A DNA stretch of 64,000 bases from Nitrospirota bacterium (GCA_963721805.1 CAVRJY010000005.1:33309-97308), one strand, 5' to 3'. Positions 1,630-48,717 are shown, numbered from the stretch's first letter. Notes: a model not told the origin generated them from the sequence alone. Numbers and translations: made by a program.

Positions 1630-1810
1630 TTCTTGAAAGCGATCCAAAGTTCCGGGATACTGCGTCACGTCTCGGAAATCCGTCCTCGATGTACGTCTCA
1701 GTACACCGTCGGACGTTTTCCTCGCCGTTTCCTTGTCTGCCGAAATTTGGCCCGCTTTATGGGGTTAAACGCGGCCCAGCCGCTGGACCCCATACCCCGT
1801 GGTCAACGGC
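1630..1810 (+). repeat. repeat A copy 1
   Basis: AAAGCGATCCAAA...GTACGTCTCAGTAC...TTTGGCCCGCTTT plus tail ending GGTCAACGGC. Confidence 0.9.
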
Positions 1811-1992
1811 GTTAAATTAGGGACACCCATACTGCTACCGGCTACTTTGACATAGTATGTCTCAGTGTGATAAATAATAAGTGGAGGTGCAGATATGACA
1901 TAGGATAAAATGGCTATATTTTTTGAAATGGTTTCACCAAGTATAAGACGCCCTTTGGGCCGAAAATGATTGCGTTGTAAAAGGAAAAGAAA

Positions 1993-2175
1993 ATGGAAAT
2001 TCAGCCGTCAAAGAAGAGCCAAGCGCTCCCACGTTGTCAGACCAAGATAAGCGGGTCAGGGTATAACTGCACTACCAATGATCCTGGGGTTCAGCAATAC
2101 ATAGGCAAGGGCATCTTAATTCTATTGATCTGTGTTGGAGTTGCCGTTATATTAAAGGCGATGCCCCGCAACTGA
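1993..2175 (+). CDS. small protein with C-terminal hydrophobic helix (cargo islet 1)
   Basis: AAGGA RBS; 60 aa ending ILILLICVGVAVILK; followed by a strong hairpin. Confidence 0.45.
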   Translation: MEIQPSKKSQALPRCQTKISGSGYNCTTNDPGVQQYIGKGILILLICVGVAVILKAMPRN

Positions 2176-2202
2176 TCGTTCTGTGCATAAGTAAATAGAG
2201 GC

Positions 2203-2246
2203 TATAGACACCACGGCCCCTCGTTCGAGGGGCCGTGGTGTCTATA
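2203..2246. terminator. perfect 21-bp inverted repeat (probable terminator)
   Basis: TATAGACACCACGGCCCCTCG-TT-CGAGGGGCCGTGGTGTCTATA. Confidence 0.6.
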
Positions 2247-2353
2247 TGTTTAACATGGGATCGATGATCTTGCAATCGTGAATAAAATTAATCGCTAATC
2301 AAGAACCTTCATTGGCGCGGGGGCAGCGGGAGCAAACCAGCCACTATTATAAT

Positions 2354-2519
2354 GCCGTTGACCGCTCGCACGATTATGCAGGGGAAGGTTAAAGTGCGAG
2401 AAATCGTGTCAGACAAGGAACGGCGAGGAAAACCGTCCGCAGTCGTACTGGGATGTACTTCGAGGACGGATTTCCGAAGCCGTGACGACGTATCACGCGC
2501 ATTTCGCGCGCTTTGAGAA
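2354..2519 (-). repeat. repeat A copy 2 (inverted relative to copy 1)
   Basis: GCCGTTGACC...GTACTGGGATGTAC...TTTCGCGCGCTTT. Confidence 0.9.
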
Positions 2520-2520
2520 C

Positions 2521-2919
2521 CTAGACTATCAGCCGCAGCTTTTTTATCTCTTGAAGCAATAAACCCTTGTCTATGGGCTTGACTATGTAGGAGAGCGCCT
2601 CACCTTTATAGAACGCGACCGATACGTTCTTCGGGTCGTCGAGCGACGTGATCATGATGACCTTCATCGCCTCGTGCGCCCCGATGCCGCGCTCGCGCTC
2701 CATCGCGCGGACGTGTTCGAGGGCCTCCTGCCCGCTGAGGTGCGGCATGATGATGTCCATCAGTATCAGGTCGTAGGGCGCGCCCTCGTCAAGCGCGATG
2801 CGGCAGGCCTGCACCGCCTCCAGCCCGTTTACGGCGACCTCGATGCTGCCGTACTCGCTCAGGATCGAGGTCAGGATCTGCCTGTTGACGAAGTCGTCCT
2901 CAGCGATCAGTATCTTCAT
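2521..2919 (-). CDS. single-domain response regulator (CheY-like receiver)
   Basis: MKILIAEDD, DLILMDIIMP, VIMITS and YIVKP motifs. Confidence 0.9.
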   Translation of the reverse strand: MKILIAEDDFVNRQILTSILSEYGSIEVAVNGLEAVQACRIALDEGAPYDLILMDIIMPHLSGQEALEHVRAMERERGIGAHEAMKVIMITSLDDPKNVSVAFYKGEALSYIVKPIDKGLLLQEIKKLRLIV

Positions 2920-3049
2920 CGCGGTATCTTTCACGTTGATATTTTACAATATTTCTGGCTATTGCGCTTGATATTTCTGGTAATATATAGCAATAAGGGC
3001 TCGGAGCGGCATTTGTTATCAGGGCCGGGCGCGGAGGGGACAAGGACTC

Positions 3050-3877
3050 ATGGCCGAGGCCAGGGAAGTCAGCGAGTACATCAGGGGCATCAGGGAGGGC
3101 TCGACCCTCCCGGAGATGCTCGGCAAGATCATCGCGCTCGTGCAGGACGAGAACTCCTCGAGCGCGGACCTGTGCCGCCTGATCTCGTTCGACCAGGGCC
3201 TGGCCGAGAGCATCCTGCGCGTCGCCAACTCCTCGATGTTCGGCCACTCGGGCCGTATACGCGACATAGACCAGGCCGTGATGTTCCTGGGCTACCGCCA
3301 GATAAAGGCCATCGCGCTTGGGATGAGCGTGATGAAGGTCTTCCCGCCCGGCGGCTCGTTCAGCCTGCGGGCGCTCTGGGCGCACGGCTACGAGGTGGCG
3401 TGCATCGCAAACGCGCTGGCCGAGGCCGTGCCTTCGGCCACTGCGAGGGAGTGTTTTCTGGCCGGGCTGCTGCACGACATAGGCCGCGTGATATTCTGCC
3501 GCCTGGACGCGGAGCGGTTCCTGAAGATCGGCACCGGCGACGACATGCTGCAGCGCGAGCGCGAGCTCTACGGCTGCACGCACGAGGACGCCGGGCGGTG
3601 GTTTTTGGAGGACACGAAGCTCCCCGATGACATCATCATGCCGGTGGCCTTCCACCACCAGCCGGACAAGGCCACGTCGTACGCCGACTCTGTCGCGATA
3701 GTGTCGTTCGCCGAGGCGCTCTCGCGCGTGCTCAACCCCGAGCGGGAGAACGACGGCATATGGCTTGCGGCCCATGACGAGATCAACCGTAGATTCGCGC
3801 TCTCTCAGGACCAGATCATGCAGATCGGCACGAGGCTTGCGCTGATGAAACGGGATATAGGAGTGTTTTTCAGATAA
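3050..3877 (+). CDS. HDOD domain protein
   Basis: DQGLAESILRVANSS, AVMFLG, AGLLHDIG, HHQP. Confidence 0.9.
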   Translation: MAEAREVSEYIRGIREGSTLPEMLGKIIALVQDENSSSADLCRLISFDQGLAESILRVANSSMFGHSGRIRDIDQAVMFLGYRQIKAIALGMSVMKVFPPGGSFSLRALWAHGYEVACIANALAEAVPSATARECFLAGLLHDIGRVIFCRLDAERFLKIGTGDDMLQRERELYGCTHEDAGRWFLEDTKLPDDIIMPVAFHHQPDKATSYADSVAIVSFAEALSRVLNPERENDGIWLAAHDEINRRFALSQDQIMQIGTRLALMKRDIGVFFR

Positions 3878-3898
3878 CGGCGTCAATTTGGGAGGTGG

Positions 3899-10336: not shown

Positions 10337-10464
10337 TTCTTCAAAGCGCTCCAAATCGCGTGATACGTCGTCAGTTCTCGAAAACTCGCCCTCGGAGTAC
10401 ATCACAGTACACCTCCGGGCGGTCTTCTTGCCCTGCCTTGTCTGAAGACGATTTGGCGCGCTTT
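10337..10464 (+). repeat. repeat A copy 3 (core only)
   Basis: AAAGCGCTCCAAATCG...GTACATCACAGTAC...CGATTTGGCGCGCTTT. Confidence 0.9.
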
Positions 10465-10498
10465 CCTAAGAGTACCGGCTGGCTGTATAATAATCTCC

Positions 10499-14737: not shown

Positions 14738-14930
14738 CTTCTAAAGTCGCGCTAAATACGCGTGATACGTCGTCACCGTTCGAAAAACGATCCTCGAAGT
14801 ATGTCCATATACGACTGCGGGGGTCACAGACCCCTCCTGTAAAGAAAAAGGTGCCCATGGCACCCCTAGTCTGACGCGATTTATCGCGCTTTAAAGTGGT
14901 CATTGCATAATCGTGCGAGCGGTCAACGGC
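14738..14930 (+). repeat. repeat A copy 4 (with internal hairpin modules)
   Basis: AAAGTCGCGCTAAAT...ATTTATCGCGCTTT; tail TCGTGCGAGCGGTCAACGGC. Confidence 0.85.
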
Positions 14931-14973
14931 ATTGATTAGAGCATTTCGATTGCTGATTTGATATAATCGGGAT

Positions 14974-15201
14974 ATGAGGAAGATCAAGATAACCGCCGAG
15001 CTGTTGCCTGCCGAGGAAGGCGGCTTCGTGGTGTATTGCCCCGAACTCGACATAACCACCGAGGGCGAGACCGCCGAGGAGGCAATCGCGATGCTCAAGG
15101 ATGCCGCGCTTGGGTATGTCGAGGTCACGGGCATCGAGAACATCCCCCATTTTTCCGCTAATACCGTCCGGGAAGAGCTTGAACTCGTGGTGAATGGCTA
15201 A
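14974..15201 (+). CDS. hicB: HicB-family antitoxin
   Basis: EEGGFVVYCPEL..TEGETAEEA motif. Confidence 0.85.
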   Translation: MRKIKITAELLPAEEGGFVVYCPELDITTEGETAEEAIAMLKDAALGYVEVTGIENIPHFSANTVREELELVVNG

Positions 15202-15442
15202 AGCGCCTTCCGTCAGCGGCAAGGAGCTGTCCGCTGTGCTTGAGAGGGAGGGCTTCAAGCTCGTAAGGCAGACCGGAAGCCACAGGATATATCAGAAGCA
15301 GACCGAAGAAGGCACAATTACAATCCCCGTCCCGGTGCATTCGAACAAGCCGCTTAAGAAAGGCACCCTCCACGCGATCATCAAGAAAGCCGGAATCACG
15401 ATGGAGAGACTTTCGTTCCTGCTCGCGATCCTGTTCGGCTAG
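15194..15442 (+). CDS. hicA: HicA-family toxin
   Basis: GF...RQTGSH, VPVH, LKKGTL..I motifs. Confidence 0.88.
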   Translation: MAKAPSVSGKELSAVLEREGFKLVRQTGSHRIYQKQTEEGTITIPVPVHSNKPLKKGTLHAIIKKAGITMERLSFLLAILFG

Positions 15443-15452
15443 GGGGCAGCGC

Positions 15453-15519
15453 CCCTTGGCTGCCGAAATTTATCGCGCTTTGATGTAGCTTATGCCTAAC
15501 CGTGCGAGCGGTCAACGGC
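15453..15519 (+). repeat. repeat A copy 5 (3' fragment plus tail)
   Basis: ATTTATCGCGCTTT...CGTGCGAGCGGTCAACGGC. Confidence 0.8.
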
Positions 15520-15533
15520 ATGTTGAGGCTACC

Positions 15534-16358
15534 TCATTCAGCGGTTGACCAAGCAGCGTAATACGTGTCGTTCAAGTAATTTGCAAGCTTGTTGGTCCCA
15601 TCAACAAACTGCTTCCATACCTGTCGAGTTTCAACAAGCAGAAAATCCAACTCAAAATCAGGAGGTTGTTGTCCAGGGATTGCCAATAATTTGCCTTTTT
15701 CTTGCTGTATTGGTGCTATCTGAGTCTCCTTAGGCCAATCCACATATGGTGTCTCATTGTGGACAAATTCATGTCGATATGTTTTCATCAGCTTTCTTGT
15801 TTCTTCTGAATCGAAACATTCATAAAGCAGACTGCACAATTCAGGGTTCTTCTTATTGGCTTTCTTGCAATATATTGAGAAAGACATTTTCTGTTTATTT
15901 GTTTCTGTATTGATAAAACATAATTTAGCATGCGAGTTCAGTAACCATGCGAGCTTTTCACGATAAGAATGTAGCCTGAATATCGCATTATCCAAGTAAT
16001 ATTTCGAATAAAACCAAGCTTCGCCACAGAACGATTTCGAATCCACAAAATCAAGGAATTCAGCACACTGACTTTTTGTCTTTTGCTCATTAAGGTATCT
16101 TGACCAAGCTAAGGCCCAACTGAGACTAACAGCTATAGAGCTTCCACAGTTGTAGACTTGTCTCCACCATTTTGGAATATTATTTACATCACAGTAAAAC
16201 TCAATAGAATCGAGAGCGGGACGCTTCAGAATATTACCTAGAGAAATCCTGCCTTTTGGCAGTGGCAAACTGTCCCAGTCAGTATTTTCAATTTTTAAGG
16301 ATGTTGCGTATTCGGCAACTATACGGAGTCTATCAAGGTAGGCTTCTTTTTCATCCAT
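15534..16358 (-). CDS. HEPN-domain protein (Cthe_2314-like), putative defence RNase
   Basis: AT-rich; DNAIFRLHSYREKLAWLLN helix; RxxxxH motif RHEFVH. Confidence 0.65.
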   Translation of the reverse strand: MDEKEAYLDRLRIVAEYATSLKIENTDWDSLPLPKGRISLGNILKRPALDSIEFYCDVNNIPKWWRQVYNCGSSIAVSLSWALAWSRYLNEQKTKSQCAEFLDFVDSKSFCGEAWFYSKYYLDNAIFRLHSYREKLAWLLNSHAKLCFINTETNKQKMSFSIYCKKANKKNPELCSLLYECFDSEETRKLMKTYRHEFVHNETPYVDWPKETQIAPIQQEKGKLLAIPGQQPPDFELDFLLVETRQVWKQFVDGTNKLANYLNDTYYAAWSTAE

Positions 16359-16388
16359 CTTTCTTCCCTCTCGGCCACCAGCAAAACC

Positions 16389-16610
16389 TTACGTCAGCAG
16401 GCTCGCCACAGAGATGTCCTCGTCGATCTCTTCCCAGTGTATGCCGATTCCCCGGCCTATGAGGCGCCATCCGGCGCGCTGGGCCTCGGACGCGTCACGG
16501 AGCCTAGGGAACCACTCGAACGGGACACTTATCTGCCGGCCGTCTAGGAGGCGCACATGCAACATATCGTTATCGAACCATACGGCGTTTGCTATATGAG
16601 CAGTAGACAT
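16389..16610 (-). CDS. DUF2442-family protein
   Basis: L.DGR.ISVP..WFPRL..A...QR..W......GIHWEEIDEDIS. Confidence 0.85.
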   Translation of the reverse strand: MSTAHIANAVWFDNDMLHVRLLDGRQISVPFEWFPRLRDASEAQRAGWRLIGRGIGIHWEEIDEDISVASLLT

Positions 16611-16675
16611 GAGTTGATTATACCACTTCGATTATTGCCGGCCGATTGTCCCCACTCACCGCTGAGCTGTGCCCC

Positions 16676-17036
16676 CTTCATTAACAATAGTTAATCGAAA
16701 GTTAATAGAAAACGCACAGGGCTCAATTTTTCCTATAACCTTCTGTTTATATATAAACCAAAGTTTGGCATTCTTTAGTGTATAGTGGTGACATGAGCAT
16801 GATAGAATCATATTTGATGGGCTGGACAGGCGAGGATGCAGGGTTCCGCACTTGTTCGGATAAATCGCTAAATACCGCTCTTTTTATCCGAACATCCGAA
16901 CAAGACGGACTCAGTGAAGCTATATATTCCGCAGGGTTAGCCTCGTTTTTGTCTCCAACATCCGAACAAAAAAGGCAAAAACGCGCGCGCACGCGCGCGG
17001 AATGCGTAACTATACCTAAGCGCGAACGTCCGAACA
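16676..17036 (+). repeat. repeat B copy 1 (iteron-like TCCGAACA array)
   Basis: Collinear with 33679-34040 and with the reverse complement of 54009-54363. Confidence 0.9.
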
Positions 17037-17037
17037 C

Positions 17038-17209
17038 GCCTTTGACCTCGTGGGGCGCGGGGGGCCTCCGTAATGTTCTCCCCCCGAAAGCGCGCCCAAA
17101 TCGGCTTCAGACAAGGCAGGGCGAGAAGACCGCCCGATGGTGTACTGTGACGTACATAGAGGGCGAGTCCTCGCAGCCCAACGCAGTATCAAGCGATTTG
17201 GCGCGCTTT
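17038..17209 (-). repeat. repeat A copy 6
   Basis: GCCTTTGACC...AAAGCGCGCCCAAATCG...GTACTGTGACGTAC...CGATTTGGCGCGCTTT. Confidence 0.9.
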
Positions 17210-17251
17210 GCACCTATTGCCAATAACGATTATTTTGAGTACCATATACCC

Positions 17252-21411: not shown

Positions 21412-21576
21412 TTTTTGGAAAGTCGCACTAAATCGCGTGATACTGCGTCGCGAGTCAAAAATCGCCCTCGGAGTACATCCCAGTACACCATCGGGCGGTC
21501 TTCTCGCCGCTCCTAGTCTGACGCGATTTATCGCGCTTTGGTGTAGCCTCGCATAATCGCGCGAGCGGTCAACGGC
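21412..21576 (+). repeat. repeat A copy 7
   Basis: AAAGTCGCACTAAATCG...GTACATCCCAGTAC...GCGGTCAACGGC. Confidence 0.9.
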
Positions 21577-21734
21577 ATTTATTAGAGCATCCCAGCCGCT
21601 GCCCCTCGGACTGGCGATGAAATATTTCATGAGATAAAATCCGCTCGCGATGTTTTGAAAAATATTGTATTATTCATCATCCTTGCGAGTTGAGCAAATT
21701 TTGTATCTAAAGGGGTTTATTGGAGGTTAATCCG

Positions 21735-22319
21735 ATGGAACTAAAATTAAAAGATATGTATAGCTATCTGCTCTCACATACTTTCCCGGGGTTATTTTTT
21801 GGGATAGAGATAATGTTTATATTCAAATGGTTTATGAACGTCGATTTGATATCACCAATCATTATTGAATTTACAAAGCCTGACAATGCAGGCATCGTCA
21901 TTGCAGTGGTTGTTCTCTCATATGCTTTTTCCACACTATTGGGTTTCGTACTCGACGGTATCCATCATTTTGTATATGAAGATTTCATGCGAAAATTCGA
22001 TGGATATAAAGATGACGATATTTTTGCTGCTATAAATACAATTGAGCGGATGCAAATATACCAACATTTCGTTGAAGATGATTACTGGTACCCCTATGAA
22101 GCATATGCAAATATTAGCATTGCAATGTTGCCTGGCCTTTTTTTATTGACATACAAGCTAATTAATTTAGGGATTACGTGGTGGATCATCTGCTTATTTA
22201 CTATCGTATATATTTTAATCCTCTATATTATGTTTTATGAAGCAAAATGCACATATGAATGCTGCTGCGATAGAGAAGAACAAATAATTAAAAATTTTAG
22301 CAATGATAAGAAAGAATAA
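21735..22319 (+). CDS. AT-rich multi-TM hypothetical protein (cargo islet 3)
   Basis: GGAGG RBS; about four hydrophobic segments. Confidence 0.7.
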   Translation: MELKLKDMYSYLLSHTFPGLFFGIEIMFIFKWFMNVDLISPIIIEFTKPDNAGIVIAVVVLSYAFSTLLGFVLDGIHHFVYEDFMRKFDGYKDDDIFAAINTIERMQIYQHFVEDDYWYPYEAYANISIAMLPGLFLLTYKLINLGITWWIICLFTIVYILILYIMFYEAKCTYECCCDREEQIIKNFSNDKKE

Positions 22320-22343
22320 TGGCATTTTTACAGAGAACGATGA

Positions 22344-32651: not shown

Positions 32652-32684
32652 CCCTTATAATAACATCCGCGCTATTTCAGTCGC

Positions 32685-32851
32685 CTTCTTCAAAGTCGCG
32701 CGAAATACGCGTGATACTGCGTCAGGGCTTCAGAAATCCGTCCTCAACGTACGTCACAGTACGCCTCGGACGTTTTCATTGCCCTTCCTTGTCTGACACA
32801 ATTTCTCGCGCTTTAGCAATGAGCTGCCTGCGCGTGCGAGCGGTCAACGGC
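32685..32851 (+). repeat. repeat A copy 10
   Basis: AAAGTCGCGCGAAAT...GTACGTCACAGTAC...GCGGTCAACGGC. Confidence 0.9.
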
Positions 32852-32912
32852 TTTGATAAGAGGGGGCACTCGGCCCGGCCGCTGCTCCGGAGCTCCCGAG
32901 GAAGGCTATTAA

Positions 32913-33482
32913 TTAAGCAGAAGATGTTTTATTGAAAGCTCTCCCTGAGTGAATCCATGAAGCAATTACAGCTATCAATAAAACCAAATCAAATAAAATA
33001 AGGCATTTTTCCCAGCGTGTAATATTTTGAAGAGAGTCATAATTAGATATCAAAAAAATCAATAAAGGACCAAGCGGCATAAGAACCAGTAAAAAATTAC
33101 GCCCCAAGGCTACAAGCCATAGCTGTCCGCTAGTACTTTGGTGAAAGGTTTCCCATTCAAATGCATCATTGTAAGTTAATAATCTAATTCTTGGATATAA
33201 AATGCTTGAAAAATACCTTCCGATTCTGTAAACCATAAGCTGATTATCGTAATACAGCAAAACAAGAGGTGCCGTTATAATTGGAGCAACGAGCATAATT
33301 GATGCAAATGATTCTTCTCCATGGAGTTTAACATAAGCCGCAAGTGCACCAGCTAAAATCACTATCAGAACATTAAGTATTGTTGAGTTAATTGTAAGTC
33401 TAGTCTTTTGTTCATCGCGCAAGGCTCGGTATTCTGTGAGATAAACTTCAATATCTTTCTTGTCCTGTATTTCTTCTGACAT
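32913..33482 (-). CDS. AT-rich multi-TM hypothetical protein (cargo islet 4)
   Basis: EY..LR.E N-terminus, four hydrophobic segments, IGRY..WE. Confidence 0.7.
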   Translation of the reverse strand: MSEEIQDKKDIEVYLTEYRALRDEQKTRLTINSTILNVLIVILAGALAAYVKLHGEESFASIMLVAPIITAPLVLLYYDNQLMVYRIGRYFSSILYPRIRLLTYNDAFEWETFHQSTSGQLWLVALGRNFLLVLMPLGPLLIFLISNYDSLQNITRWEKCLILFDLVLLIAVIASWIHSGRAFNKTSSA

Positions 33483-33678
33483 TAACAAACACCTTTACCT
33501 ATCAACCTTGTCCCAGCTTTCGTTGAAGCCCTAAGGGCTCGCCTTGCCATTATCATAAACTGCCTACATTTATCTGTCAATAATATTTTGCAGCAAGACA
33601 ACCGTGAGGCTTAATCATATCGCCATATTCGCATACGTTCGGAACTGGTTTATGGGAAAGAGTTCCCATGGCATCTCT

Positions 33679-34040
33679 CTTCATTAACCATAGTTAATCG
33701 AAAGTTAATAGAAAACGAATGGCCCCTAATTTTTCCTATTATCTTCGGTTTATATATGAACCAAAGTTTGGCATTCTTTAGTGTATAGTGGAGGCTATGA
33801 GTATGATAGAGTCCTATTTGATGGTCGCGGCAAGTGTTATGGATGTCCGCGCCGCGTGTTCGGATAATGGGCCAAAAACATCGCTTTTTATCCGAACATT
33901 CGAACAGGGGAACTTTTCAAAAGCTAGTAAATCCGGTGGGTTAGCTCCGATTTTGCCCCCAACATCCGAACAAAATCGGCAAAAACGCGCGCGTGCGCGC
34001 GCGGTATGCATATATATGCCTAAGCGGGGATATCCGAACA
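33679..34040 (+). repeat. repeat B copy 2
   Basis: TTAATCGAAAGTTAA, AACCAAAGTTTGGCATTCTTTAGTGTATAGT, TCCGAACA boxes, CGCGCG tract. Confidence 0.9.
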
Positions 34041-34041
34041 T

Positions 34042-34207
34042 GCCGTTGACCGCTCGCACGCGCAGGCGGGAGAAACTTAAAGCGCGAGAAATCAGCGTCA
34101 GACTAGGAGCGGCGAGGGAAACGTCCGAGGGTGTACTGAGACGTACATCGAGGACGGATTTCCGAAGCCGCGACAACGTATCACGCGATTTGGCGCGCTT
34201 TGGAGAA
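34042..34207 (-). repeat. repeat A copy 11
   Basis: GCCGTTGACC...GTACTGAGACGTAC...CGATTTGGCGCGCTTT. Confidence 0.9.
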
Positions 34208-34228
34208 AACTACAAACGCAGCTTTCTC

Positions 34229-34696
34229 TTACTCGGCCTCTACGATCTTGTAGTTTACGTTGTGTTCCAGATCCTTGCGCAGCGAATGATACACCGAGCA
34301 ATACTTGTCCTTGGAGAGCGCAATCGCCCTGTCCATCTTCTTCGGGTCAATATGCTTGCCCGTGATCGTTATCATCAGGTCGATGCGCTTGAAGTACTGC
34401 GGAGGCGTCGGGTTGCGCCATCCCATCGTCTCGATCTTGAAGTCCTGGATATCTACGCGCATCTTCTGAAGGAAGCTCACCATGTCTATGGCCATGCACG
34501 CGGTTACGGAGGCCAGCAGGCTCTCCGTCGGCATGCAGCCCCACTCGACCTTCGCGTCGTAGTCGATGACGTAGCCGGTCGATGTGCGCGCGGCGAATAT
34601 GAGGTCCTTGTCGTAGGTGAGGGTGAGCTTCATCTCGGGGTTAATCTTGCCCTTGTAGCCCTCGAGCTGCTCTTCAAGCTGCGGTTCTTCTGCCAT
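34229..34696 (-). CDS. OsmC-family protein
   Basis: PTESLLASVTACMAID and LSKDKYCSV. Confidence 0.85.
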   Translation of the reverse strand: MAEEPQLEEQLEGYKGKINPEMKLTLTYDKDLIFAARTSTGYVIDYDAKVEWGCMPTESLLASVTACMAIDMVSFLQKMRVDIQDFKIETMGWRNPTPPQYFKRIDLMITITGKHIDPKKMDRAIALSKDKYCSVYHSLRKDLEHNVNYKIVEAE

Positions 34697-36705: not shown

Positions 36706-36888
36706 CTTTTTCAAAGCGCTCCAAATCGCTTGATACGTCGTCATCAGTCGAAAATAGTCCTCGGAGTATGTCCATATACACCTGCGTCCTATTTTCGCCT
36801 TCTTCCTAGTCTGAAGACGATTTGGCCGCGCTTTCGGGGGTTGGTCGCGGCCCAGCCGCTGGACCCCCGCACCCCCAAGGTCAACGGC
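36706..36888 (+). repeat. repeat A copy 12
   Basis: AAAGCGCTCCAAATCG...CGATTTGGCCGCGCTTT...AAGGTCAACGGC. Confidence 0.9.
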
Positions 36889-36900
36889 TTAGATTAGATA

Positions 36901-37224
36901 TTATCTGACAATCGAACGGACGACTTTTAGGATGAGGCGCTGTTTATCTTCACCAGCTTCCTTGACTAGGCTGCTGATTTCCTTTGCCAGTTCCTGTGAA
37001 GATTTTTTATGATGTGAGAACTCGAAGAAATCCTTCATATCCATTTTCAAAGACTTGGCTATTGCCGCCAGTGTATCCATCGAGGGGAACCCCCTCCCTA
37101 CTTCAATCCGGCTAAGGTGCTTCGGGTCTATATCTATCATCTCGGCAAGCTTTTCCTGAGACAAGCCCCTCAGCTTTCGCAGTTCTTTTATCCTTGCCCC
37201 AAGTAATCCTTTTGGTGTCTCCAT
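36901..37224 (-). CDS. XRE-family HTH transcriptional regulator (cargo islet 5)
   Basis: LGARIKELRK..GLSQEKLAE...LSRIEVG..PS. Confidence 0.9.
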   Translation of the reverse strand: METPKGLLGARIKELRKLRGLSQEKLAEMIDIDPKHLSRIEVGRGFPSMDTLAAIAKSLKMDMKDFFEFSHHKKSSQELAKEISSLVKEAGEDKQRLILKVVRSIVR

Positions 37225-37418
37225 AATCTTCCTCCATCAATAATCGCTTTTCAGGAGGGTTTTTATAACTATCTTAAATGGCGATAAGTAATTGCCTTAT
37301 CTACATTTGATATAGTAAACTCTACATTGCAGATAGATATTAGAGGCAAGTCCGGCTTAATATGCTGAATCATGATGCCGTAAGGGGCACGATATGACGG
37401 AAGACAACGAACTCTAAA

Positions 37419-37814
37419 ATGACACACCTGCACAACAGCCAGCCTGTCGGCATCCACTTCCTTGTCGAGTTTTTCGGCTGCTCGGAGGAGCAGTTGGATT
37501 CGCTCCGCTTCTGGAAGAAGCTGCTTGCGGATGCGGTCAAGGGCAGTGATATAAAGATGCTGAATAAGCACTTCTATCATTTCAAGCCCCATGGCATAAC
37601 CGGATATCTCCTGCTTTCCACGTCCCATATATCGGTGCATACATGGCCCGAGTATGCCTATGTCGCCTGCGATGTCTTTAGCTGCGGCGGGAAAGCCGAG
37701 ACTAAAAGCATTGTAAAGCACATTACGGACAATCTTAATCATGACACGGTGAAGATAAAGAAAATGAAACGGGGATTTAGGATTTTTTCTGACAAAGGAG
37801 GTCATCTTAGCTAA
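37419..37814 (+). CDS. speD: S-adenosylmethionine decarboxylase-family proenzyme
   Basis: F.PHGITG, LLSTSHISVHTWPE, DVFSCG. Confidence 0.8.
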   Translation: MTHLHNSQPVGIHFLVEFFGCSEEQLDSLRFWKKLLADAVKGSDIKMLNKHFYHFKPHGITGYLLLSTSHISVHTWPEYAYVACDVFSCGGKAETKSIVKHITDNLNHDTVKIKKMKRGFRIFSDKGGHLS

Positions 37815-37815
37815 T

Positions 37816-38340
37816 ATGGTTGGGAAAATCGGTTTTCAAACTGAGATAATTCAAGGATATAGAGAAGAATATTTCAAATCAATTTTAAAGCTCGAACCAT
37901 TATTCCCGATTTCCATCCAAGACTCAAAAGATAAAACAATTGAACATTTGAAAACACCTTCAAACATTAATATTTTTCTCAGGAAAGATGAAAGCATAAT
38001 CGGCTGGATCTTGGGGACGCCACAAAATACTATCTATGAAGAACTAAAAACCGATGATATTGAGATCAAGCCCGATGACGAAATGTATTATATTGATAAA
38101 GTTGTTGTAGTACCTGAACACCGCGAAGGTCTAACCTTTCTCAGGTTGGGAGACGCGCTAATCAATGAGGCAAAAAAACGAGGTTGTCATAAAATATCTG
38201 CACATATCGTATCTGACAACGGACTCCATAAAATAATTATAAGGAAATTTGGCAAATTTATCATAACAAGGAGAAAAGTGTCTTTAGCAATACATGATTT
38301 TATTCCATTTGAGTATATTGAAATATGCTTACCTAAATGA
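37816..38340 (+). CDS. GNAT-family N-acetyltransferase (cargo islet 5)
   Basis: YYIDKVVVVPEHR; KISAH; similar to 22344-22859. Confidence 0.7.
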   Translation: MVGKIGFQTEIIQGYREEYFKSILKLEPLFPISIQDSKDKTIEHLKTPSNINIFLRKDESIIGWILGTPQNTIYEELKTDDIEIKPDDEMYYIDKVVVVPEHREGLTFLRLGDALINEAKKRGCHKISAHIVSDNGLHKIIIRKFGKFIITRRKVSLAIHDFIPFEYIEICLPK

Positions 38341-38347
38341 CTTACCG

Positions 38348-38890
38348 ATGAAAGGCGAGGGCACCAAGGAGAACAGCACAGAAAAGCTGTTGTCTTATGG
38401 CGGCAGGATTGCTGAGCTATCCATCGGAATTACCGCAAGTCAATTTTTAGTGTTCGTTTTCGATTATCTTCTTTATCCGTTTATCGTTTATCAATTCGGG
38501 CTTCTCATGGGCGGGATTGTAATGACTATTTTTTCATTGATTGCTTGTTTACTTGTAATGAAAGTTTATGATTGGTCTAAACGGGATTGGTTAGGCATTG
38601 AGTCAATAAAACGGTTAAAGGAATACACAGGAGGTAGAAAAACAGGAAAGATACTGTCATGGATATTAAGACAGAGTAATCCAGTGGTCATGCTATTTCT
38701 CTCAATCAAGTTTGACCCATTTATCGCAACTATATACATGAGACATGGAAGCCACCAATATAACGGCATGAGCAAGAGGGATTGGAAGATATTCTTTACA
38801 AGTCTTGTACTCAGTAATATCTATTGGACACTCGCAGCCTTCACAGGGGTTACGGTCATAGAGTACGCATGGAGGCACTTATTCAAATAA
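38348..38890 (+). CDS. membrane protein (cargo islet 5)
   Basis: Hydrophobic segments; FDYLLYP, YDWSKRDWLGIE, FDPFI; stop codon abuts repeat A. Confidence 0.7.
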   Translation: MKGEGTKENSTEKLLSYGGRIAELSIGITASQFLVFVFDYLLYPFIVYQFGLLMGGIVMTIFSLIACLLVMKVYDWSKRDWLGIESIKRLKEYTGGRKTGKILSWILRQSNPVVMLFLSIKFDPFIATIYMRHGSHQYNGMSKRDWKIFFTSLVLSNIYWTLAAFTGVTVIEYAWRHLFK

Positions 38891-39066
38891 GCCGTTGACA
38901 TTGGGGGCGCGGGGGGCGTCCGTTGCAGTGCCCCCCGAAAGCGCGCCCAAATCGTCTTCAGACAAGGCAGGGCGAGAAGACCGCCCGATGGTGTACTTGG
39001 GCGTACATAGAGGGCGAGTCTTCGATGCCCAACGACGTATCAAGCAATTTGGCGCGCTTTAAAGAA
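38891..39066 (-). repeat. repeat A copy 13
   Basis: GCCGTTGACA...GTACTTGGGCGTAC...AATTTGGCGCGCTTT. Confidence 0.9.
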
Positions 39067-39072: not shown

Positions 39073-40191
39073 CTAGTAGAAAAGTTCGAACCGTCTGGTT
39101 CGAACGTTGATTAACAAGGCGGCGGCTATGTAGTTGCCGGCCAGCGCCGTCCCCCCATAGCTCATGAACGGCAGCGGTATGCCCACGACCGGCATCAGCC
39201 CCAGCGTCATCGAGACGTTGATCACGGTATAGAGGAAGAACATGAAGGTGATGCCCGTTGCGAGCATGCGGCCGAAGTCGTCCTTGGCCTTCCCTGCAGT
39301 ATCGAGGCCCCGGTGCAGGAGCGTGAAGTACAGCCCCAGCAGCGCCAGCGAGCCTACCAGCCCCCACTCCTCGGCGAAGATCGAGAAGATGAAGTCCGTG
39401 TGCTTCTCTGGCAGGAACCTAAACGGCCCCTGCGTGCCCTTGAGGTAGCCCTTGCCGAACAGCCCGCCCGAGCCCACCGCGACCTTCGACTGGTTGATGT
39501 GGTAGCTCAGGCCGTCGGGGTCGCTGTCGGGGTCCACGAAGGACAGTATGCGGTTTTTCTGGTAGTCCTTAAGGTGGTCCCAGGCCACGGTGCCCGCGAC
39601 CGGCAGCACGACCAGCGAGACCAGCACGCTCACGATCAGGAGCTTCTTGCCGACGCCCTTGGCGAGCACCATCAGCACGAACATCCCAAGCAGTATCACC
39701 GCGGTGCCGAGGTCCGGCTGCTTGATGATCATCAGCACCGGTACGAGCGTGAAGGACAGAAACGCGGTTATCACCTGCCGGGCCGTAAGCGCCCCCTCTA
39801 TGCCCGAGAGGTAGCGCGAGAGCATCATCAGGTATGCGAGCTTGAAGACCTCGCTCGGCTGGAACTGCACCCCGCCGACGGATATCCACCGCTTGGCCCC
39901 CATGCCGGTATGACCGAGCACGAAGACCAGCGCGAGCAGCACGATGCCCAGGGCGTAGAGGTATGGCGCGGCGCGGTGAAACCAGGTGTAGTCCACGCTC
40001 AGGATCAGCGACATCATCCCCAGCCCGATCAGCAGCCAGTAGGTCTGTCGCACGTAGAACGTGGGCCAGCTGGTATCGAAGAGCGGCCGCGTGGCGCTGA
40101 AGATCGTCATGATCCCGAGCGCGGTGATCGAGAGCACGATGCCGAGCGTCGGCCAGTCCATGTTCGCCAGCAGCCGTCTGTCAATGCGCAC
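39073..40191 (-). CDS. rodA: rod shape-determining protein RodA
   Basis: GAKRWI, QPSE, QPDLGT, PEKHTDFIF, GIPLPFMSYGG. Confidence 0.95.
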   Translation of the reverse strand: MRIDRRLLANMDWPTLGIVLSITALGIMTIFSATRPLFDTSWPTFYVRQTYWLLIGLGMMSLILSVDYTWFHRAAPYLYALGIVLLALVFVLGHTGMGAKRWISVGGVQFQPSEVFKLAYLMMLSRYLSGIEGALTARQVITAFLSFTLVPVLMIIKQPDLGTAVILLGMFVLMVLAKGVGKKLLIVSVLVSLVVLPVAGTVAWDHLKDYQKNRILSFVDPDSDPDGLSYHINQSKVAVGSGGLFGKGYLKGTQGPFRFLPEKHTDFIFSIFAEEWGLVGSLALLGLYFTLLHRGLDTAGKAKDDFGRMLATGITFMFFLYTVINVSMTLGLMPVVGIPLPFMSYGGTALAGNYIAAALLINVRTRRFELFY

Positions 40192-40216
40192 TGTTGGCTC
40201 CGGGAACGTTTAATAA

Positions 40217-40398
40217 GCCGTTGACCTTGGGGTATGGGGTCCAGCGGCGGAGCCGCGACCAACCCCATAAGGTGCGATAAATCGTCTTCAGGCAAGGAAG
40301 GGCGAGGAAAACGTCCGCAAGTGTACTGTGATGTACTCTGGAGGACGGATTTCCGAAGCCCTGACGCAGTATCAAGTGATTTAGCGCGCCTTCAAAAG
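40217..40398 (-). repeat. repeat A copy 14, between mrdA and rodA, flanked by a 16-bp direct repeat
   Basis: AATGCGCACTGTTGGC at 40183-40198 and 40415-40430. Confidence 0.9.
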
Positions 40399-40412
40399 GT
40401 GTGCAAACAGCT

Positions 40413-42191
40413 CTAATGCGCACTGTTGGCCTCCAGGTTGGCGAGGTATGTTTCTATTGCCTTCTTCGCTATGGGCGCGGCGGCCGAGCCGCCGTGGCCT
40501 CCGTGCTCGACGAGCACCGCGCATGCGATCTCCGGGTGCGAGGCCGGGGCATAGGCCACGAACCAGGCGTGGTCCTTAAGCGCGTCCGGCGTTGCGCTCG
40601 CGAGGCGTTTCTTGTTCGCGTTTGAGTATACCTGCGCGGTGCCGGTCTTGCCCGCGATCACGAAATCGTCGGAGTGCGCGGCGTGGGCCGTGCCGCGCGG
40701 GTCGTTGACCACGCCTATGAGCGCGCGCTTTACGAGCTCTATGTTCTCGGGGCTGAGGTCATAGGAGTCCGCCGCGGCGCGCTTTGCCTCATACGGGGCT
40801 ATGCGCTTGAGCGTCGGCTCGTAGAGCCTGCCGTCGGCCGCGACGGTCGCGATCATCCGCGCGAGCTGAAACGGCGTGACCGCGACGTAGCCCTGCCCGA
40901 TTGCGGCGTTGTACGTCTCGCCGAGGTACCAGCTCTCGCCCTTTGTCTTGAGCTTCCACTCCTCGTCCGGTATGAGCCCCGGCCGCTCCATCGCGAGCCC
41001 CAGCGTGCTCGTCGCACCGAGGCCGAGGCGGCGGGCCATCTTCGCTATCGAATCGATCCCGGTCAGCGCGCCGACGGTATAGAAGTACACGTCGCACGAC
41101 TGTATCAGCCCGGCCTCGAACGCGAGCGCGCCGTGGCCGCGCTTCTGCCAGCAGCCGAACCGCCACTTGCCGTACTGCAGGCCGCCGTTGCAGACGACGA
41201 CGCGGCCCGGCGTGACCTTGCCGGACTCCAGCGCTGCCAGCCCTGTGACTATCTTGAAGGTCGAACCCGGCGGGTACTGGCTTTGGAGCGCGCGGTTGAG
41301 CATCGGCTTTTCCGGGTCGTTTATCAGGCGGCCCCAGTCGCCGCTCTTTATCCCGAAGCTGAAGAGGTTCGGGTCGTAAGAGGGCTTGCTCACCATCCCC
41401 AGGATCTCGCCGGTTGAGGGGCGGATTGCGACGAACGCGCCCTTGCGGTCCCCGAAGGACTCCTCGACGGCCTTCATCATCTCGATGTCTATGCTCAGGT
41501 GCAGGCCCTCGCCCTTCCGGGGCGGGGTCTGAGCGATCACGCGTATCTGCTTGCCGAGGGCGTTGACCTCTATCGCGCGCTCCCCGGGCACGCCGCGCAG
41601 GGTCTTGTCATAGAGCTTCTCGACCCCGAACTGCCCGATGAAGGCCTGCATCGGGACGTCGGCGAATTCGGGCAGCTCGGCCTGCTCCGGGGTGATGCGG
41701 CCGAGGTATCCCAGCAGGTGCGCCCCGACCTCGCCGTAGAGGTACTTCCGCGACTTGTCGACCATCACGTTCAGGGCCGGGAAGTCCGAGAGCCGGGCCT
41801 CGACCTTCGAGACCTCCTCGAGGTTCAGGCCCTCGCGGACGATGATCGGGTCAAGCGTATTTCTTGCGCGGTCGGCGCGTTTCTGGAGCCACTGGGGGTC
41901 GAGGCCGAGGAAATCCGCGGCGCGGCCGAGGTCCGTTATGTCGATGAGCTCTGGGTTTAAGGTGATCGAGAACGCGGCCGAGCTCTGGACGAGCGCCTTG
42001 CCCCAGCGGTCGTAGATGATGCCGCGCGGGGCCGGGACCTTCTCGAGCCTCAGGCGGTTTTCAAACGCCATGCGGCTGTATTCGGCGCCCCTGAGTATCT
42101 GCAGGTGCCAGAGCCGTATCGCCAGGATCGAGAAGAATATCCCGATGAAGAAGATGATCGCGAATGAGTTTATGTTGCGTTCAGCTCTCAT
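40413..42191 (-). CDS. mrdA: penicillin-binding protein 2
   Basis: PAPRGIIYDR, PGSTFK (SxxK), SCD, KTGTAQ. Confidence 0.95.
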   Translation of the reverse strand: MRAERNINSFAIIFFIGIFFSILAIRLWHLQILRGAEYSRMAFENRLRLEKVPAPRGIIYDRWGKALVQSSAAFSITLNPELIDITDLGRAADFLGLDPQWLQKRADRARNTLDPIIVREGLNLEEVSKVEARLSDFPALNVMVDKSRKYLYGEVGAHLLGYLGRITPEQAELPEFADVPMQAFIGQFGVEKLYDKTLRGVPGERAIEVNALGKQIRVIAQTPPRKGEGLHLSIDIEMMKAVEESFGDRKGAFVAIRPSTGEILGMVSKPSYDPNLFSFGIKSGDWGRLINDPEKPMLNRALQSQYPPGSTFKIVTGLAALESGKVTPGRVVVCNGGLQYGKWRFGCWQKRGHGALAFEAGLIQSCDVYFYTVGALTGIDSIAKMARRLGLGATSTLGLAMERPGLIPDEEWKLKTKGESWYLGETYNAAIGQGYVAVTPFQLARMIATVAADGRLYEPTLKRIAPYEAKRAAADSYDLSPENIELVKRALIGVVNDPRGTAHAAHSDDFVIAGKTGTAQVYSNANKKRLASATPDALKDHAWFVAYAPASHPEIACAVLVEHGGHGGSAAAPIAKKAIETYLANLEANSAH

Positions 42192-45791: not shown

Positions 45792-46902
45792 ATGACTAAA
45801 GAGGAAATAAAGCTGCAGGCAGGCCTTCTTAGGGAGCGCACCGATTCCCTAAGAGGGTATCTTTGATCTCCCCACCCTCACGCACAAGCTCGAAGAGATA
45901 GACAAGGCACTCGGGGCCGAGGACACATGGGCCTCGCACGAGCGCGCCACCGAGCTCAACCGCCAGAAGACCCGCATCCAGTCCACGCTCGCGCCGTTTG
46001 AGGCCGCCGACCGGAAGATGACATACATCGAGAGCTCAATCGGGATGCTCGACGAGGAGGGCGGCGAGATGTTCGCCCCCGAGCTCGCGGCAGCGCTTAA
46101 CGAGCTCATCCCTGAACTTGACGGCCTCGAGCTTCGGTGCCTGATGTCCGGCGAGCGCGACATCTCAAACGCGATAGTCACGATACATCCCGGCGCGGGC
46201 GGCACCGAGAGCCAGGACTGGGCCCAGATGCTGATGCGCATGTACCTCAGGTGGGCCGAGACGCACGGCCTCGCAACCGAAATCCTCGACCTCCAGCCGG
46301 GCGACGAGGCCGGGATCAAGAGCGTCACGTTCGAGGTCACCGGGCCGTACGCATACGGCAACCTCAAGACCGAGGCCGGGGTGCACAGGCTCGTGCGCAT
46401 CTCGCCGTTTGACGCGGCGAAGCGCCGCCACACCTCGTTTTCCGCGGTGCTCGTATACCCCGAGGTCGAGGGCGACGTCGAGGTCGAGCTCAGGGACGAG
46501 GACATCAAGATGGACACGTTCCGCGCCTCGGGCGCAGGCGGGCAGCACGTCAACAAGACCTCCTCCGCGGTGCGGCTGACGCACATCCCCTCGGGCGTGA
46601 TCGTGAGCTGCCAGAACGAGCGCTCCCAGCACAGAAACCGCGAAAGCTGCATGAAGATACTGAAGGCCAAGCTCTACGACCTCGGGCTCAAGGAGCGGGA
46701 AAACGAGATGGAGGGCATCGTCGGGGAGAAGAAGAATATCGCCTGGGGCAGCCAGATACGCTCGTACGTCCTGCAGCCCTATCGCATGGCGAAGGACCAT
46801 CGCACGGGAGTCGAGATCGGCAACGTGGACGCGGTACTCGACGGGGCACTCGACCTGTTCATAAAAGCTGCACTGAAAAATAAACTGGGGCGGACGTCTT
46901 AA
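45792..46902 (+). CDS. prfB: peptide chain release factor 2 with programmed +1 frameshift at 45861-45867
   Basis: 24-codon first frame ending AGAGGG TAT CTT TGA T; second frame has SPF and GGQ motifs. Confidence 0.95.
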
Positions 46903-46903
46903 T

Positions 46904-47065
46904 AAAGTCGCGCCAAATCGCTTGATACTGCGTCACGGCTTCAAAGACACGCCCTCTATGTACATCCCAGTACACCATCGGGCGGTCTTCTCGCCCTTCC
47001 TTGTCTGAAGACGATTTCTCGCGCATTAAGTTTATTCTTGCGTAATCGTGCGAGCGGTCAACGGC
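46904..47065 (+). repeat. repeat A copy 15
   Basis: AAAGTCGCGCCAAATCG...GTACATCCCAGTAC...GCGGTCAACGGC. Confidence 0.9.
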
Positions 47066-47142
47066 ATGATTTGAGCGGCCCATCCGCTGCCCCAAAGTAT
47101 GATTAGATTGGATATGTGCCATCACTTGACACTACAAAGTTG

Positions 47143-47921
47143 CTAAATTTTTTGGCCTGTATTAAGCCGGCGCTCTAGAGCCTCAAGGAACTTTATTGAA
47201 GATGCGACATGTGTATAGATTAGTAGACTCTCTTCGTAATTGAGGAAGCTATTGTCATGGGCAAGGCTTTGGTCATTACGTACTTTATTAAAGGCCTCAA
47301 GTGTTGAAATGCTTGATTTTAGGATGCGCTCGGTCATTTCTGACTCCAAATGCCCATGCACCTTTAATGTTTTAACGTACTCGCCAACCAAACTATGCAA
47401 TGGCTTATCTTTGTCTGTGGATATTCCGTGATTTTGGCAAAGTACTCGAAGATACTTAATAGTAAAGGTGTGCAGTCTGTCCAAACCGACCTCTGGCTCG
47501 TGTTTTTCAATGGATTCCCGGACAGCCCTTGCCAACACAGCAAACTCTCGTTCAGGACTATTAGGGGTTAATGTCACAACTTCTGGGATTCCTGCTGCCT
47601 CAGAAAGCCTTGCTAAGGCCCTGCGACAATCATCATACGCTTTTAACATTTCCGCGTTAGCGAACTCTACGGAAACGCACTGCATTAGGTCTGTGAGCAG
47701 TTTGGCAACTACATCGTTTGACTCCCGTGTCCAAAATGCTCTAAGCCGGTTTGCTTTTTGAAACCACTTCCGAAGTTGTACTTCTCGTCTAAGATGCTTA
47801 ACCCAGTACTATCAAAGACAAACTCATCGAATAAGCGAGTTGTAAAATCCAAAACGTAGCCACTTCCCATGCCGAAGAGTGCCTCAAAGTTCCGTTTTTC
47901 AATTTTCGTTAGGTCAGACAT
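47143..47921 (-). CDS. abortive-infection family protein (Abi_C/HEPN-like), frameshifted near 47755-47763
   Basis: N-terminal MGSGYVLDF; SKANRLRAFW restored on removing two homopolymer bases; C-terminal RNDQSLAH. Confidence 0.7.
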
Positions 47922-47975
47922 AGATTCCTGCGCACAAAAATAATTAATAAGTCTGCATCTACCTTAACCTTTTTA

Positions 47976-48030
47976 TATAGCGCGAGATTTCCGAGGCCGT
48001 GACGCAGTATCCAGGAAATCTCGCGCTATA
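47976..48030. repeat. collapsed repeat A derivative forming a perfect 17-bp hairpin (copy 16)
   Basis: TATAGCGCGAGATTTCC-21 nt-GGAAATCTCGCGCTATA; loop contains GTGACGCAGTATC from repeat A. Confidence 0.7.
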
Positions 48031-48037
48031 ATGATTT

Positions 48038-48244
48038 TTACTGCCCTACGGCTGTGAGGTCGAGTTTAAAGAGCGTATTGATCGGGAATTTCTTGCTTGC
48101 TTCGAGGATTTCGATACCCACGAGGTCGTTTTGGGCCGTAGTGTGCAGGGCTACTCCTTCCGCGATCTCGATCGCGCCGTCAGGCTTCTTGGGTGAAAGC
48201 TGTATATATGCCGCATCGGCCTCTTTATCGTACTTAATTTTCAT
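48038..48244 (-). CDS. DUF2283-family protein (putative antitoxin)
   Basis: MKIKYDKEADAAYI...VGIEILEAS. Confidence 0.85.
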   Translation of the reverse strand: MKIKYDKEADAAYIQLSPKKPDGAIEIAEGVALHTTAQNDLVGIEILEASKKFPINTLFKLDLTAVGQ

Positions 48245-48485
48245 TTGCGCCTCCCCAAGCCTTACGCTTAAGCGGATATGCTGTTATTACAAATGTCTCG
48301 CCGCCTGAAAGCTCAAAAACCACCTTCAGCGGGTATCCAGAAAAGCGCTTTCCAAAGCGCTTGATCGCGACTTGTTTGCCCGTTTGAGACTCAAGGAGTT
48401 CAGGCGTGCCTATTGCCTCCGAAACATCATCAGCGGTGATCCCGTATAGTTTCATGTTGCTCCGGGCATGGCGCGACAGTCTCAT
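48234..48485 (-). CDS. DUF4258-family protein (putative RelE-like toxin)
   Basis: SRHA...M...I; LKVV...VITAYP; overlaps the DUF2283 gene. Confidence 0.8.
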   Translation of the reverse strand: MRLSRHARSNMKLYGITADDVSEAIGTPELLESQTGKQVAIKRFGKRFSGYPLKVVFELSGGETFVITAYPLKRKAWGGANEN

Positions 48486-48533
48486 AAATTATTGTACCAG
48501 AATGTGAAAGTGATAAATAGTATATATAACTAA

Positions 48534-48717
48534 GACGTTGACCTTGGGGGCGCGGGGGTCCAGCGGCTGGGCCGCGTCTAACCCCCGAAAGCGCGCCCAA
48601 ATCGGCTTCAGACAAGGCAGGGCGAGAAGACCGCCCGATGGTGTACTGGGATGTACATAGAGGGCGAGTCTTTGAAGCCCAACGCAGTATCAAGCAATTT
48701 GGAGCGCTTTGAAGAAG
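48534..48717 (-). repeat. repeat A copy 17
   Basis: GACGTTGACC...GTACTGGGATGTAC...AATTTGGAGCGCTTT. Confidence 0.9.

Follow-up and report, generated by a model that had tools for sequence, protein, structure and literature searches.

The cassettes of integrons are poor in promoters and are joined, by the action of the integrase IntI, at a short conserved core which lies beside a folded imperfect palindrome (attC). Repetitive extragenic palindromes (REP), as seen in bacterial interspersed mosaic elements (BIME) and REPIN–RAYT systems, are high-copy intergenic hairpin repeats which form mosaics of small repeats and are favoured targets of insertion sequences (IS); to our knowledge, no REP element acts as a regular bracket of foreign islets. 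In a third system, the dif modules, the flanking sites stand inverted. Reports on Acinetobacter plasmids describe these as accessory modules bounded by pdif (XerC/XerD) sites (PMC6449649, PMC13141974, PMC12907356). Composite units flanked by miniature inverted-repeat transposable elements (MITEs), or mobile insertion cassettes, are reported as passenger genes between inverted non-coding repeats, free of a transposase (PMC3913671). For a ParE/RelE operon of Photorhabdus, a single palindrome is reported at the locus that lacks the operon; where the operon is present, the palindrome flanks it on either side and no mobility gene accompanies it (PMC13617665). The subject here is a stretch of 64,000 nucleotides (nt) from a Nitrospirota genome (C5:33309-97308; ‘the window’), in which copies of a structured repeat of ~190 nt, repeat A, face each other tail to tail around small islets of AT-rich accessory DNA; each tail closes with a 10-nt core, and some islets carry a second non-coding element, module B, at one end. 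The literature searched describes no structured repeat bracketing ~50 islets in one chromosome, which is no proof of absence.

With dif modules the islets share several traits: both are small, carry toxin–antitoxin genes, lie between two inverted sites, encode no enzyme, appear shuffled and would be served by host enzymes. Inverted bounding sites, the lack of an enzyme inside, and XerD together with an XerC-like protein in the host were all found here. However, dif modules have 28-bp XerC–spacer–XerD sites and are packed on Rep_3 plasmids, whereas the islets are bounded by a structured repeat of 190 nt whose 10-nt core does not resemble dif, and are scattered on the chromosome between housekeeping genes, with module B in 29 of 48. 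The likeness to integron cassettes lies in accessory DNA poor in promoters, in a core next to a folded palindrome and in cargo of defence and toxin–antitoxin genes; the first part of one islet ends in a partial repeat A (15450-15524), as an integron cassette ends in attC. By eye, the core resembles the attC motif RYYYAAC with one mismatch, its partner (GTTRRRY) lying away from the base of the repeat A hairpin. Integrons, in contrast, have IntI, a single platform and direct attC arrays, while the islets have no IntI, their sites are facing and dispersed, and the repeats are longer than attC. The description ‘integron-like’ given in the original prediction, which was made from the sequence alone, is not supported in two respects: no integron integrase was found, and the sites are inverted and dispersed instead of forming attC-like direct arrays. 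Set against MITE cassettes, the islets have no target duplications, unrelated arms, no cognate transposase that could be found, and ~50 cargos in one genome. Repeat A is 5–8 times longer than REP elements, is polar, and has no RAYT. The Photorhabdus palindrome is reported as a duplicated 24-bp sequence resembling a Tn3 res site, unlike the inverted 190-nt arms and ~50 recurrences of the islets (PMC13617665).

The source genome comprises 2.78 Mb in nine contigs, with a guanine–cytosine (GC) content of ~0.60, and is 94% complete. A profile of repeat A, made from 14 window copies and run over the whole genome with nhmmer, gave 242 matches, of which 182 have a tail and 170 are full length; solo copies make up ~80 of the 182. 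Each full copy consists of a head beside host genes, an imperfect hairpin of ~130 nt and a tail of ~50 nt. The tail closes with the invariant core GGTCAACGGC and is followed by a looser linker of ~11 nt, most often ATTGATTAGAG; core columns are ~90–99% conserved against 40–90% in the next 9 columns. Of 142 exact cores in the genome, 126 lie at repeat A tails, and the window holds 28 cores at up to one mismatch (mean 5.3 and maximum 12 in 100 shuffles). Two main tail variants are combined with module B, short hairpin arrays, repeat A remnants or unique DNA, and in some arms 5'-truncated second pieces of the repeat and tandem cores lie directly behind core and linker. The head boundary fades across ~12 nt with no sharp end, and the median distance from head to host gene is 12 nt. 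Between nearest neighbours the median identity is 0.89 and the highest 0.966, so that no pair of copies reaches 0.98.

The hairpin of repeat A is real and is kept by compensatory changes. Across 39 copies, 90.5% of cells are paired and 20 of the 41 pairs show changes on both sides; these statistics were reached by 0 of 500 shuffles, and slid controls pair at 34–45%. The structure used was mapped from one copy, and replaced a first automatic consensus with 7 pairs. Two internal-loop motifs, TGATAC and GTCTGA, are near-invariant. No curated Rfam covariance model matched anywhere in the window at its gathering score, and at E up to 1 the interval 32600-34300 gave one chance match only, within cargo. 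The fold energy of the reverse strand is lower in 128 of 170 copies, a result which speaks against a reading of repeat A as RNA transcribed from head to tail and which fits single-stranded DNA as well as RNA. In some copies (14740-14940 and 53789-54002), an additional small hairpin of ~30–40 nt is inserted into the main stem on its 3' strand.

All six tail-to-tail pairs claimed for the window in the original prediction were recovered by the profile and by a scan for the core, with one mismatch in three of the facing cores. In pair 1 the left arm (1632-1819, + strand, core 1801-1810; nhmmer match C5:34940-35127, model positions 2-188) and the right arm (2345-2517, − strand, core 2354-2363) enclose an islet of 543 nt (1811-2353) with one small open reading frame (ORF) and a GC content of 0.45, measured on 1820-2344. 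Pair 2 (left arm 14740-14940, +, core 14921-14930, with the small hairpin insert; right arm 17031-17211, −, core 17038-17047, one mismatch) encloses islet 2 (14931-17037), which is split in two by an inner, 5'-truncated repeat A (15450-15524, +, model positions 95-184) with its own core (15510-15519), followed by an inverted core-like 10-mer (15541-15550). The first part, before 15450, has 509 nt with a GC content of 0.56, and was labelled hicBA in the original prediction; the second holds a HEPN gene, a DUF2442 gene and then a module B (16649-17027, −; nhmmer match C5:49957-50335) which is joined to the right-arm tail and has a terminator-like hairpin at 16999-16982. Pair 3 (21418-21586, +, core 21567-21576; 22915-23101, −, core 22925-22934) encloses islet 3 (21577-22924; GC 0.35), with a 199-amino-acid (aa) ORF lacking a family match and a GNAT acetyltransferase. 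Islet 4 (32852-34041; GC 0.41), between the arms of pair 4 (32690-32861, +, core 32842-32851; 34033-34204, −, core 34042-34051), holds a 191-aa ORF lacking a family match and a module B (33654-34030, −) whose inner end is near 33681. Pair 5 (36709-36898, +, core 36879-36888; 38881-39064, −, core 38891-38900, one mismatch) encloses islet 5 (36889-38890; GC 0.41), with a gene for an XRE-type helix–turn–helix protein and ORFs of 178 and 198 aa lacking family matches. Pair 6 (46902-47074, +, core 47056-47065; 48525-48714, −, core 48534-48543, one mismatch) encloses islet 6 (47066-48533; GC 0.45), with an Abi_C-domain gene and two small ORFs. Islets 1, 3, 5 and 6 have no module B.

The islets are more AT-rich than their surroundings, as had been claimed: inner GC contents are 0.35–0.45 (pair 2 being measured from the inner partial copy, 15525-17030) against 0.61–0.63 in the flanks. 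The sole other window bin below 0.50 (54001-54500) is a module B behind a solo repeat A tail. At all six pairs both cores are intact or differ by one mismatch, and cargo begins ~0–25 nt from the core. Stop codons do lie near the tail, one ORF ending at 38890 directly against the core and the XRE gene 12 nt from it. Overlooked in the original prediction were the three modules B at one end of window islets or tails, the inner partial copy in islet 2, and the many one-sided islets at repeat A tails elsewhere in the genome.

The link between facing tails and low-GC DNA holds across the genome. Pairs of adjacent copies were counted as tail-to-tail, head-to-head or tandem; among the 58 tail-to-tail pairs, which are dispersed over five contigs, 47 are closer than 5 kb, compared to 10 of 56 head-to-head pairs. 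The 50 tail-to-tail pairs shorter than 6 kb span 93,588 nt, with a mean GC content of 0.456 against 0.616 in their flanks. When intervals of 150–6000 nt between adjacent tail-bearing copies were considered, 38 of the 48 that lie tail to tail had a GC content below 0.52, as opposed to none of the 14 head-to-head and one of the 27 tandem ones (1/16 and 0/11; Fisher p=1e-14), an enrichment which the original prediction had proposed to test. The tail is the only end of repeat A joined to non-host DNA. Judged from crude ORF-based gene calls, the head is faced by the 3' end of a host gene in 104 of 170 copies and by a 5' end in 47, 26 of which are paired arms, with no gene within 400 nt in the remaining 19. 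Pairing is therefore no by-product of gene ends.

Near-empty pairs also exist, with 12, ~43 and 50 nt between the arms. From spacers of 12–50 nt, the ~50 pads between facing arms can be calculated to offer a target of ~1.5 kb, yet they hold 24–48 small islets, and the pads are therefore strong hot spots.

Module B, which is conserved and non-coding, measures ~360 nt and contains GTTCGGATG iterons and an AT-rich palindrome; its inner end is sharp, and its terminator-like hairpin reads inward. It has 63 profile matches in the genome, and 47 repeat A tails are joined to it. Of the 48 islets, 29 carry it at exactly one end and none at both. A coding role was rejected, since its ORFs are of low complexity and its indels do not come in threes. 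A role as a sigma-70 promoter is likewise unsupported by a consensus scan, which found the inward-reading terminator-like hairpin alone.

The sequences to the left and right of the core are freely re-assorted. The two arms of a pair resemble each other no more than copies drawn at random do (identity 0.789 against 0.779; n=41, p=0.45), and in only 3 of 41 cases does the partner rank within the five closest copies. Arms on the B side do not form a class separate from the others (p=0.08), and distances between arms do not follow those of the attached modules B (Mantel r=0.06, p ~0.10, 43 units). All 48 cargos are different, and no two units have both arms in common. Target duplications of at least 9 nt were absent from all 50 pairs and present at 3 of 79 solo copies, and those of at least 5 nt occurred at the outer heads of 2 of 34 pairs, with a control mean of 1.2; the test covered lengths of at least 5 nt, above the 2–4 nt range.

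The scan of the cargo took in 126 ORFs (66 aa or longer) drawn from 47 islets, the remaining one of the 48, on C4, being left out. It includes restriction–modification genes (an MmeI-type enzyme and a methylase–Mrr fusion), toxin–antitoxin genes (HepT/MNT, ParE/Phd, Gp49/HTH and MazE) and other defence-type or accessory genes (KAP NTPase, PLD, protein kinase, SRAP, Abi_C, HEPN and GNAT); many ORFs have no family assignment. No recombinase was found among the 126, save for secondary IS481-like, IS30-like and IS200 copies.

Taken together, these features suggest that a tail-to-tail pair of repeat A works as a palindromic docking site, at whose core a trans-acting enzyme inserts or exchanges DNA; the probability of this reading is put at roughly 40%. 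Repeat A has expanded to ~240 copies in this lineage, and two facing copies would serve as arms, with core and linker as the crossover region. Segments of 0.5–5 kb might then be inserted or swapped conservatively by the enzyme supplied in trans, while module B, with its iterated putative protein-binding motifs, may be a partner site on the cassette side or a platform for accessory proteins. Selection would retain the defence, restriction–modification and toxin–antitoxin cargo. The enzyme might be the XerC/XerD pair or a protein not yet recognised. The polarity, the position of the joins, the re-assortment around the core, the near-empty pairs and the lack of target duplications and of an enzyme in the cargo were observed; recombination at the core as the origin of the joins is inferred, and the same holds for its direction, for the role of module B and for the enzyme. 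More doubtful is the fuller proposal of a dispersed, integron-like capture system, in which cassettes, some with module B, are exchanged among ~50 docking sites by conservative recombination at the 10-nt core; its recombinase would be host-encoded or an as yet unrecognised protein.

A search for such an enzyme covered the genome’s recombinases and transposases. There are seven tyrosine recombinases (PF00589): XerD (335.1 bits against a cut-off of 329.6), an XerC-like protein (332.6 bits against 335.15) and five others, of which four are located inside or close to the low-GC islands of C2 and C4. A small serine recombinase was also found, inside a C2 island. Among the seven, the best score against the integron integrase model TIGR02249 was 126.5 bits (cut-off 265), and against NF011946 it was 80 (cut-off 435). 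With two dif consensus strings, a single dif-like site was found in the genome, at C1:1448129 (− strand), with an exact match to the XerD arm. The original prediction had suggested looking for a transposase, HUH/Y1 (RAYT) or tyrosine recombinase gene with A-like ends; no RAYT or HUH gene with such ends was found, the sole Y1 genes in the genome belonging to six identical copies of IS200, which have their own hairpins. The IS110, reverse transcriptase, TnpB, IS4/5, IS630, Tn3 and IS256 families had no match in the 94%-complete genome. The IS91 (Y2) model had none either, a blank which is uninformative because the model also matched 0 of its 14 control genomes. Following these family and site searches, ideas based on integrons, Xer/dif, RAYT, IS110 bridge RNA, TnpB and retroelements were all dropped.

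Outside the source genome, a BLAST search of 30 relatives with one copy of repeat A gave no match. A covariance model built on the mapped structure found diverged A-like hairpins in 3 of 10 other genomes of the family (G002, G003 and G006), with 17, 19 and 5 matches among the 150 candidates scored per genome. In these three genera the elements are near-uniform and keep the fold and the internal-loop motifs, and they have other tails, which lack the core. This suggests that A-like hairpins are a family-wide mobile or functional structured element. Judging from the sequences compared, the core-bearing tail, module B and the islets are a feature of the present lineage. A loose pattern scan of genome contigs gave 75 chance loci, the best of which matched the profile over part of the length only, at an E of 9.5e-4; with a stricter pattern, metagenome contigs gave no match, and 80 metagenomic PBP2 loci (at most 53% identical; 984 kb) held neither repeat A nor module B. 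In public sequencing run X1, short contigs are identical to the window and probably come from the source or the same strain. Run X2 contains relatives ~88–90% like this genome, with high depth on repeat A and module B bins. In runs X2–X4, reads scarcely cover the unique parts of islets 4, 5 and 6, which is no evidence of absence.

Several points weigh against the docking-site reading. No enzyme could be tied to the repeat A site among the genome’s tyrosine and serine recombinases, and the tail does not resemble the one dif-like site. Of the original prediction’s claim that repeat A ends act as capture or recombination sites, the site itself gains support from the joins at the tail, the invariant core, the re-assortment, the near-empty pairs and the recombinase-free cargo, while the serving enzyme was not found. 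Part of the tail-side polarity is geometric, because the heads sit so close to host genes. Gene conversion among 240 copies could also wipe out relationships between arms. There are no identical copies of repeat A, no circular or inversion joint was trustworthy at the depth of the reads, and no empty orthologous site was demonstrated, as contigs end where the repeats lie. At the core–linker junction, an imperfect dyad is apparent by eye. In the three other genera the A-like elements lack module B and show no GC asymmetry (0.597 against 0.599; in 12 of 25 the tail side has the lower value), so that this family of repeats also occurs free of cargo and is older than the link to it. Finally, the genome contains 169 low-GC segments (242 kb), of which 24 have inward repeat A tails at both ends and 9 have another copy nearby, but 49 have a tail at one end only and 87, including large integrase-type islands on C2 and C4, have none. 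The original prediction had placed every conspicuously AT-rich gene of the window inside a pair; given the 87 segments, the link is valid for small islets and not for all foreign DNA. The large islands at C2:1-37000 and C2:300000-343500 hold most of the non-Xer recombinases and are not bounded by repeat A.

A less likely alternative is capture that was driven by structure or was unspecific. Facing pairs would then be fragile or favoured places, for instance because hairpins or cruciforms break or because assorted mobile elements target them, at which repair, homology-assisted exchange after DNA uptake, or other elements bring in DNA, followed by selection; only insertions that leave both arms intact would survive. 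Because the heads hug host genes, free space exists only on the tail side. Three unrelated IS families do home on repeat A or module B, the arms are randomly assorted, as homology exchange would give, and one-sided islets are common (49 segments). Such a process, however, would hardly preserve the cores and start cargo ~0–25 nt from them if it worked from resected breaks, it has to fill a ~1.5-kb target with 24–48 small islets, and it offers no reason why module B sits at one end, and one only, in 29 of the 48 islets.

The docking-site reading must also be set beside a view of the islets as non-autonomous cargo transposons or mobile insertion cassettes, which is less likely again. Repeat A would be a long terminal inverted repeat, and A plus B a longer, asymmetric end; the transposase would be absent from the 94%-complete assembly, and solo copies and empty pairs would be MITE forms. 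Such ends would explain arms inverted around cargo and a one-sided module B. The uniform, MITE-like relatives of repeat A in three other genera and a 16-nt duplication at a solo copy between mrdA and rodA fit as well. A contig of run X2 in which a repeat A tail, linker and remnant run straight onto the inner end of module B could be a cargo-less unit in another population, a weak point given its depth of 3.9 and 85% likeness. Nevertheless, no target duplications border the outer heads and the head boundary is gradual. Partner arms are unrelated and do not fall into left and right classes, A and B are not co-inherited, and there are 48 different cargos with no two units sharing both arms. None of the IS4/5, IS630, Tn3, IS256, IS110, TnpB and reverse transcriptase families is matched.

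Under a further, improbable explanation, repeat A arrives second: foreign DNA inserts by other means, and repeat A later targets both boundaries with its tail inward. The solo insertion at mrdA/rodA indicates that the repeat can move alone, ~80 of 182 tail-bearing copies are solo, and a linker-like motif occurs, inverted, at both cargo ends. The linker, however, also follows solo tails at host DNA or hairpin arrays, and is therefore part of repeat A and not of the cargo. Moreover, the copies look old, none reaching an identity of 0.98, while the cargo has a GC content of 0.35–0.50, and near-empty pairs lack cargo altogether. Least of all can the pairing be attributed to chance or annotation, with copies simply lying behind convergent genes, an explanation raised with the original prediction: a host 3' end does face the head in 104 of the 151 copies with a neighbouring gene, but 5' ends face it in 47, including 26 paired arms, and low GC is confined to tail-to-tail intervals (p=1e-14).

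If the docking-site reading is correct, ~3% of the genome (93.6 kb of 2.78 Mb) would be laid out as ~50 standard slots for defence and toxin–antitoxin genes, in a free-living bacterium which has no integron, plasmid or cassette-borne transposase to serve them. It would represent a third organisation of accessory genes, alongside the arrays of integrons and the dif modules, for which an explanation is still lacking. The simplicity of the site, which consists of a 10-nt core next to a conserved fold, makes the mechanism directly testable. Under the rival readings too, repeat A would be a useful marker of recently acquired genes in this lineage.

Three IS families are inserted in repeat A, module B or the cargo; their ends are unlike repeat A, and their copies are secondary insertions. 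An IS30-family element with a 326-aa transposase interrupts repeat A in all five copies examined (C1:387100-388500, C1:649150-650560, C1:759480-760870, C2:396900-398300 and C2:367140-368200), four times at model position ~114, the fifth copy lying within the tail-less − strand arm of a near-empty pair. It is a site-specific parasite of repeat A. An IS481-family element of ~1.18 kb (344-aa transposase, TGT...ACA ends) has ten near-identical copies, all at one spot of a module B variant which bears four tandem 14-nt GGAAC...GTTCC palindromes (for example C1:669775-670809 and C2:405942-406976). IS200, with a 143-aa Y1 transposase and GC-rich end hairpins, lies in cargo or at the inner end of module B in six identical copies (C1:42301, C1:366622, C1:1252034, C1:1452182, C4:138543 and C4:146508), two of them directly after TTAAC at that inner end.

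Unpaired copies of repeat A also occur in the window. A tail-less copy at 10339-10470 (+) consists of the hairpin only (model positions 2-133). A solo copy at 40201-40416 (−) lies at the mrdA/rodA junction, where the mrdA stop and the rodA start overlap; the direct duplication of 16 nt (40185-40200 and 40417-40432) restores both gene ends, so that both essential genes are intact, and is the longest of the three flanking duplications of at least 9 nt among the 79 solo copies. Elsewhere in the genome, at least 13 solo tails lead into short arrays of small GC-rich hairpins spaced by a GCGAATAG-type motif (for example C1:350580-350700 and C1:382900-383100), forming a BIME-like mosaic. Beyond the range of the pairs, a unit on the + strand (53789-54394) comprises a solo repeat A (53789-54002, core 53983-53992) joined to a module B (54018-54394). 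Just past it lies a long gene (54700-58000) with 10–14 diverged tandem repeats of a period of ~162 nt.

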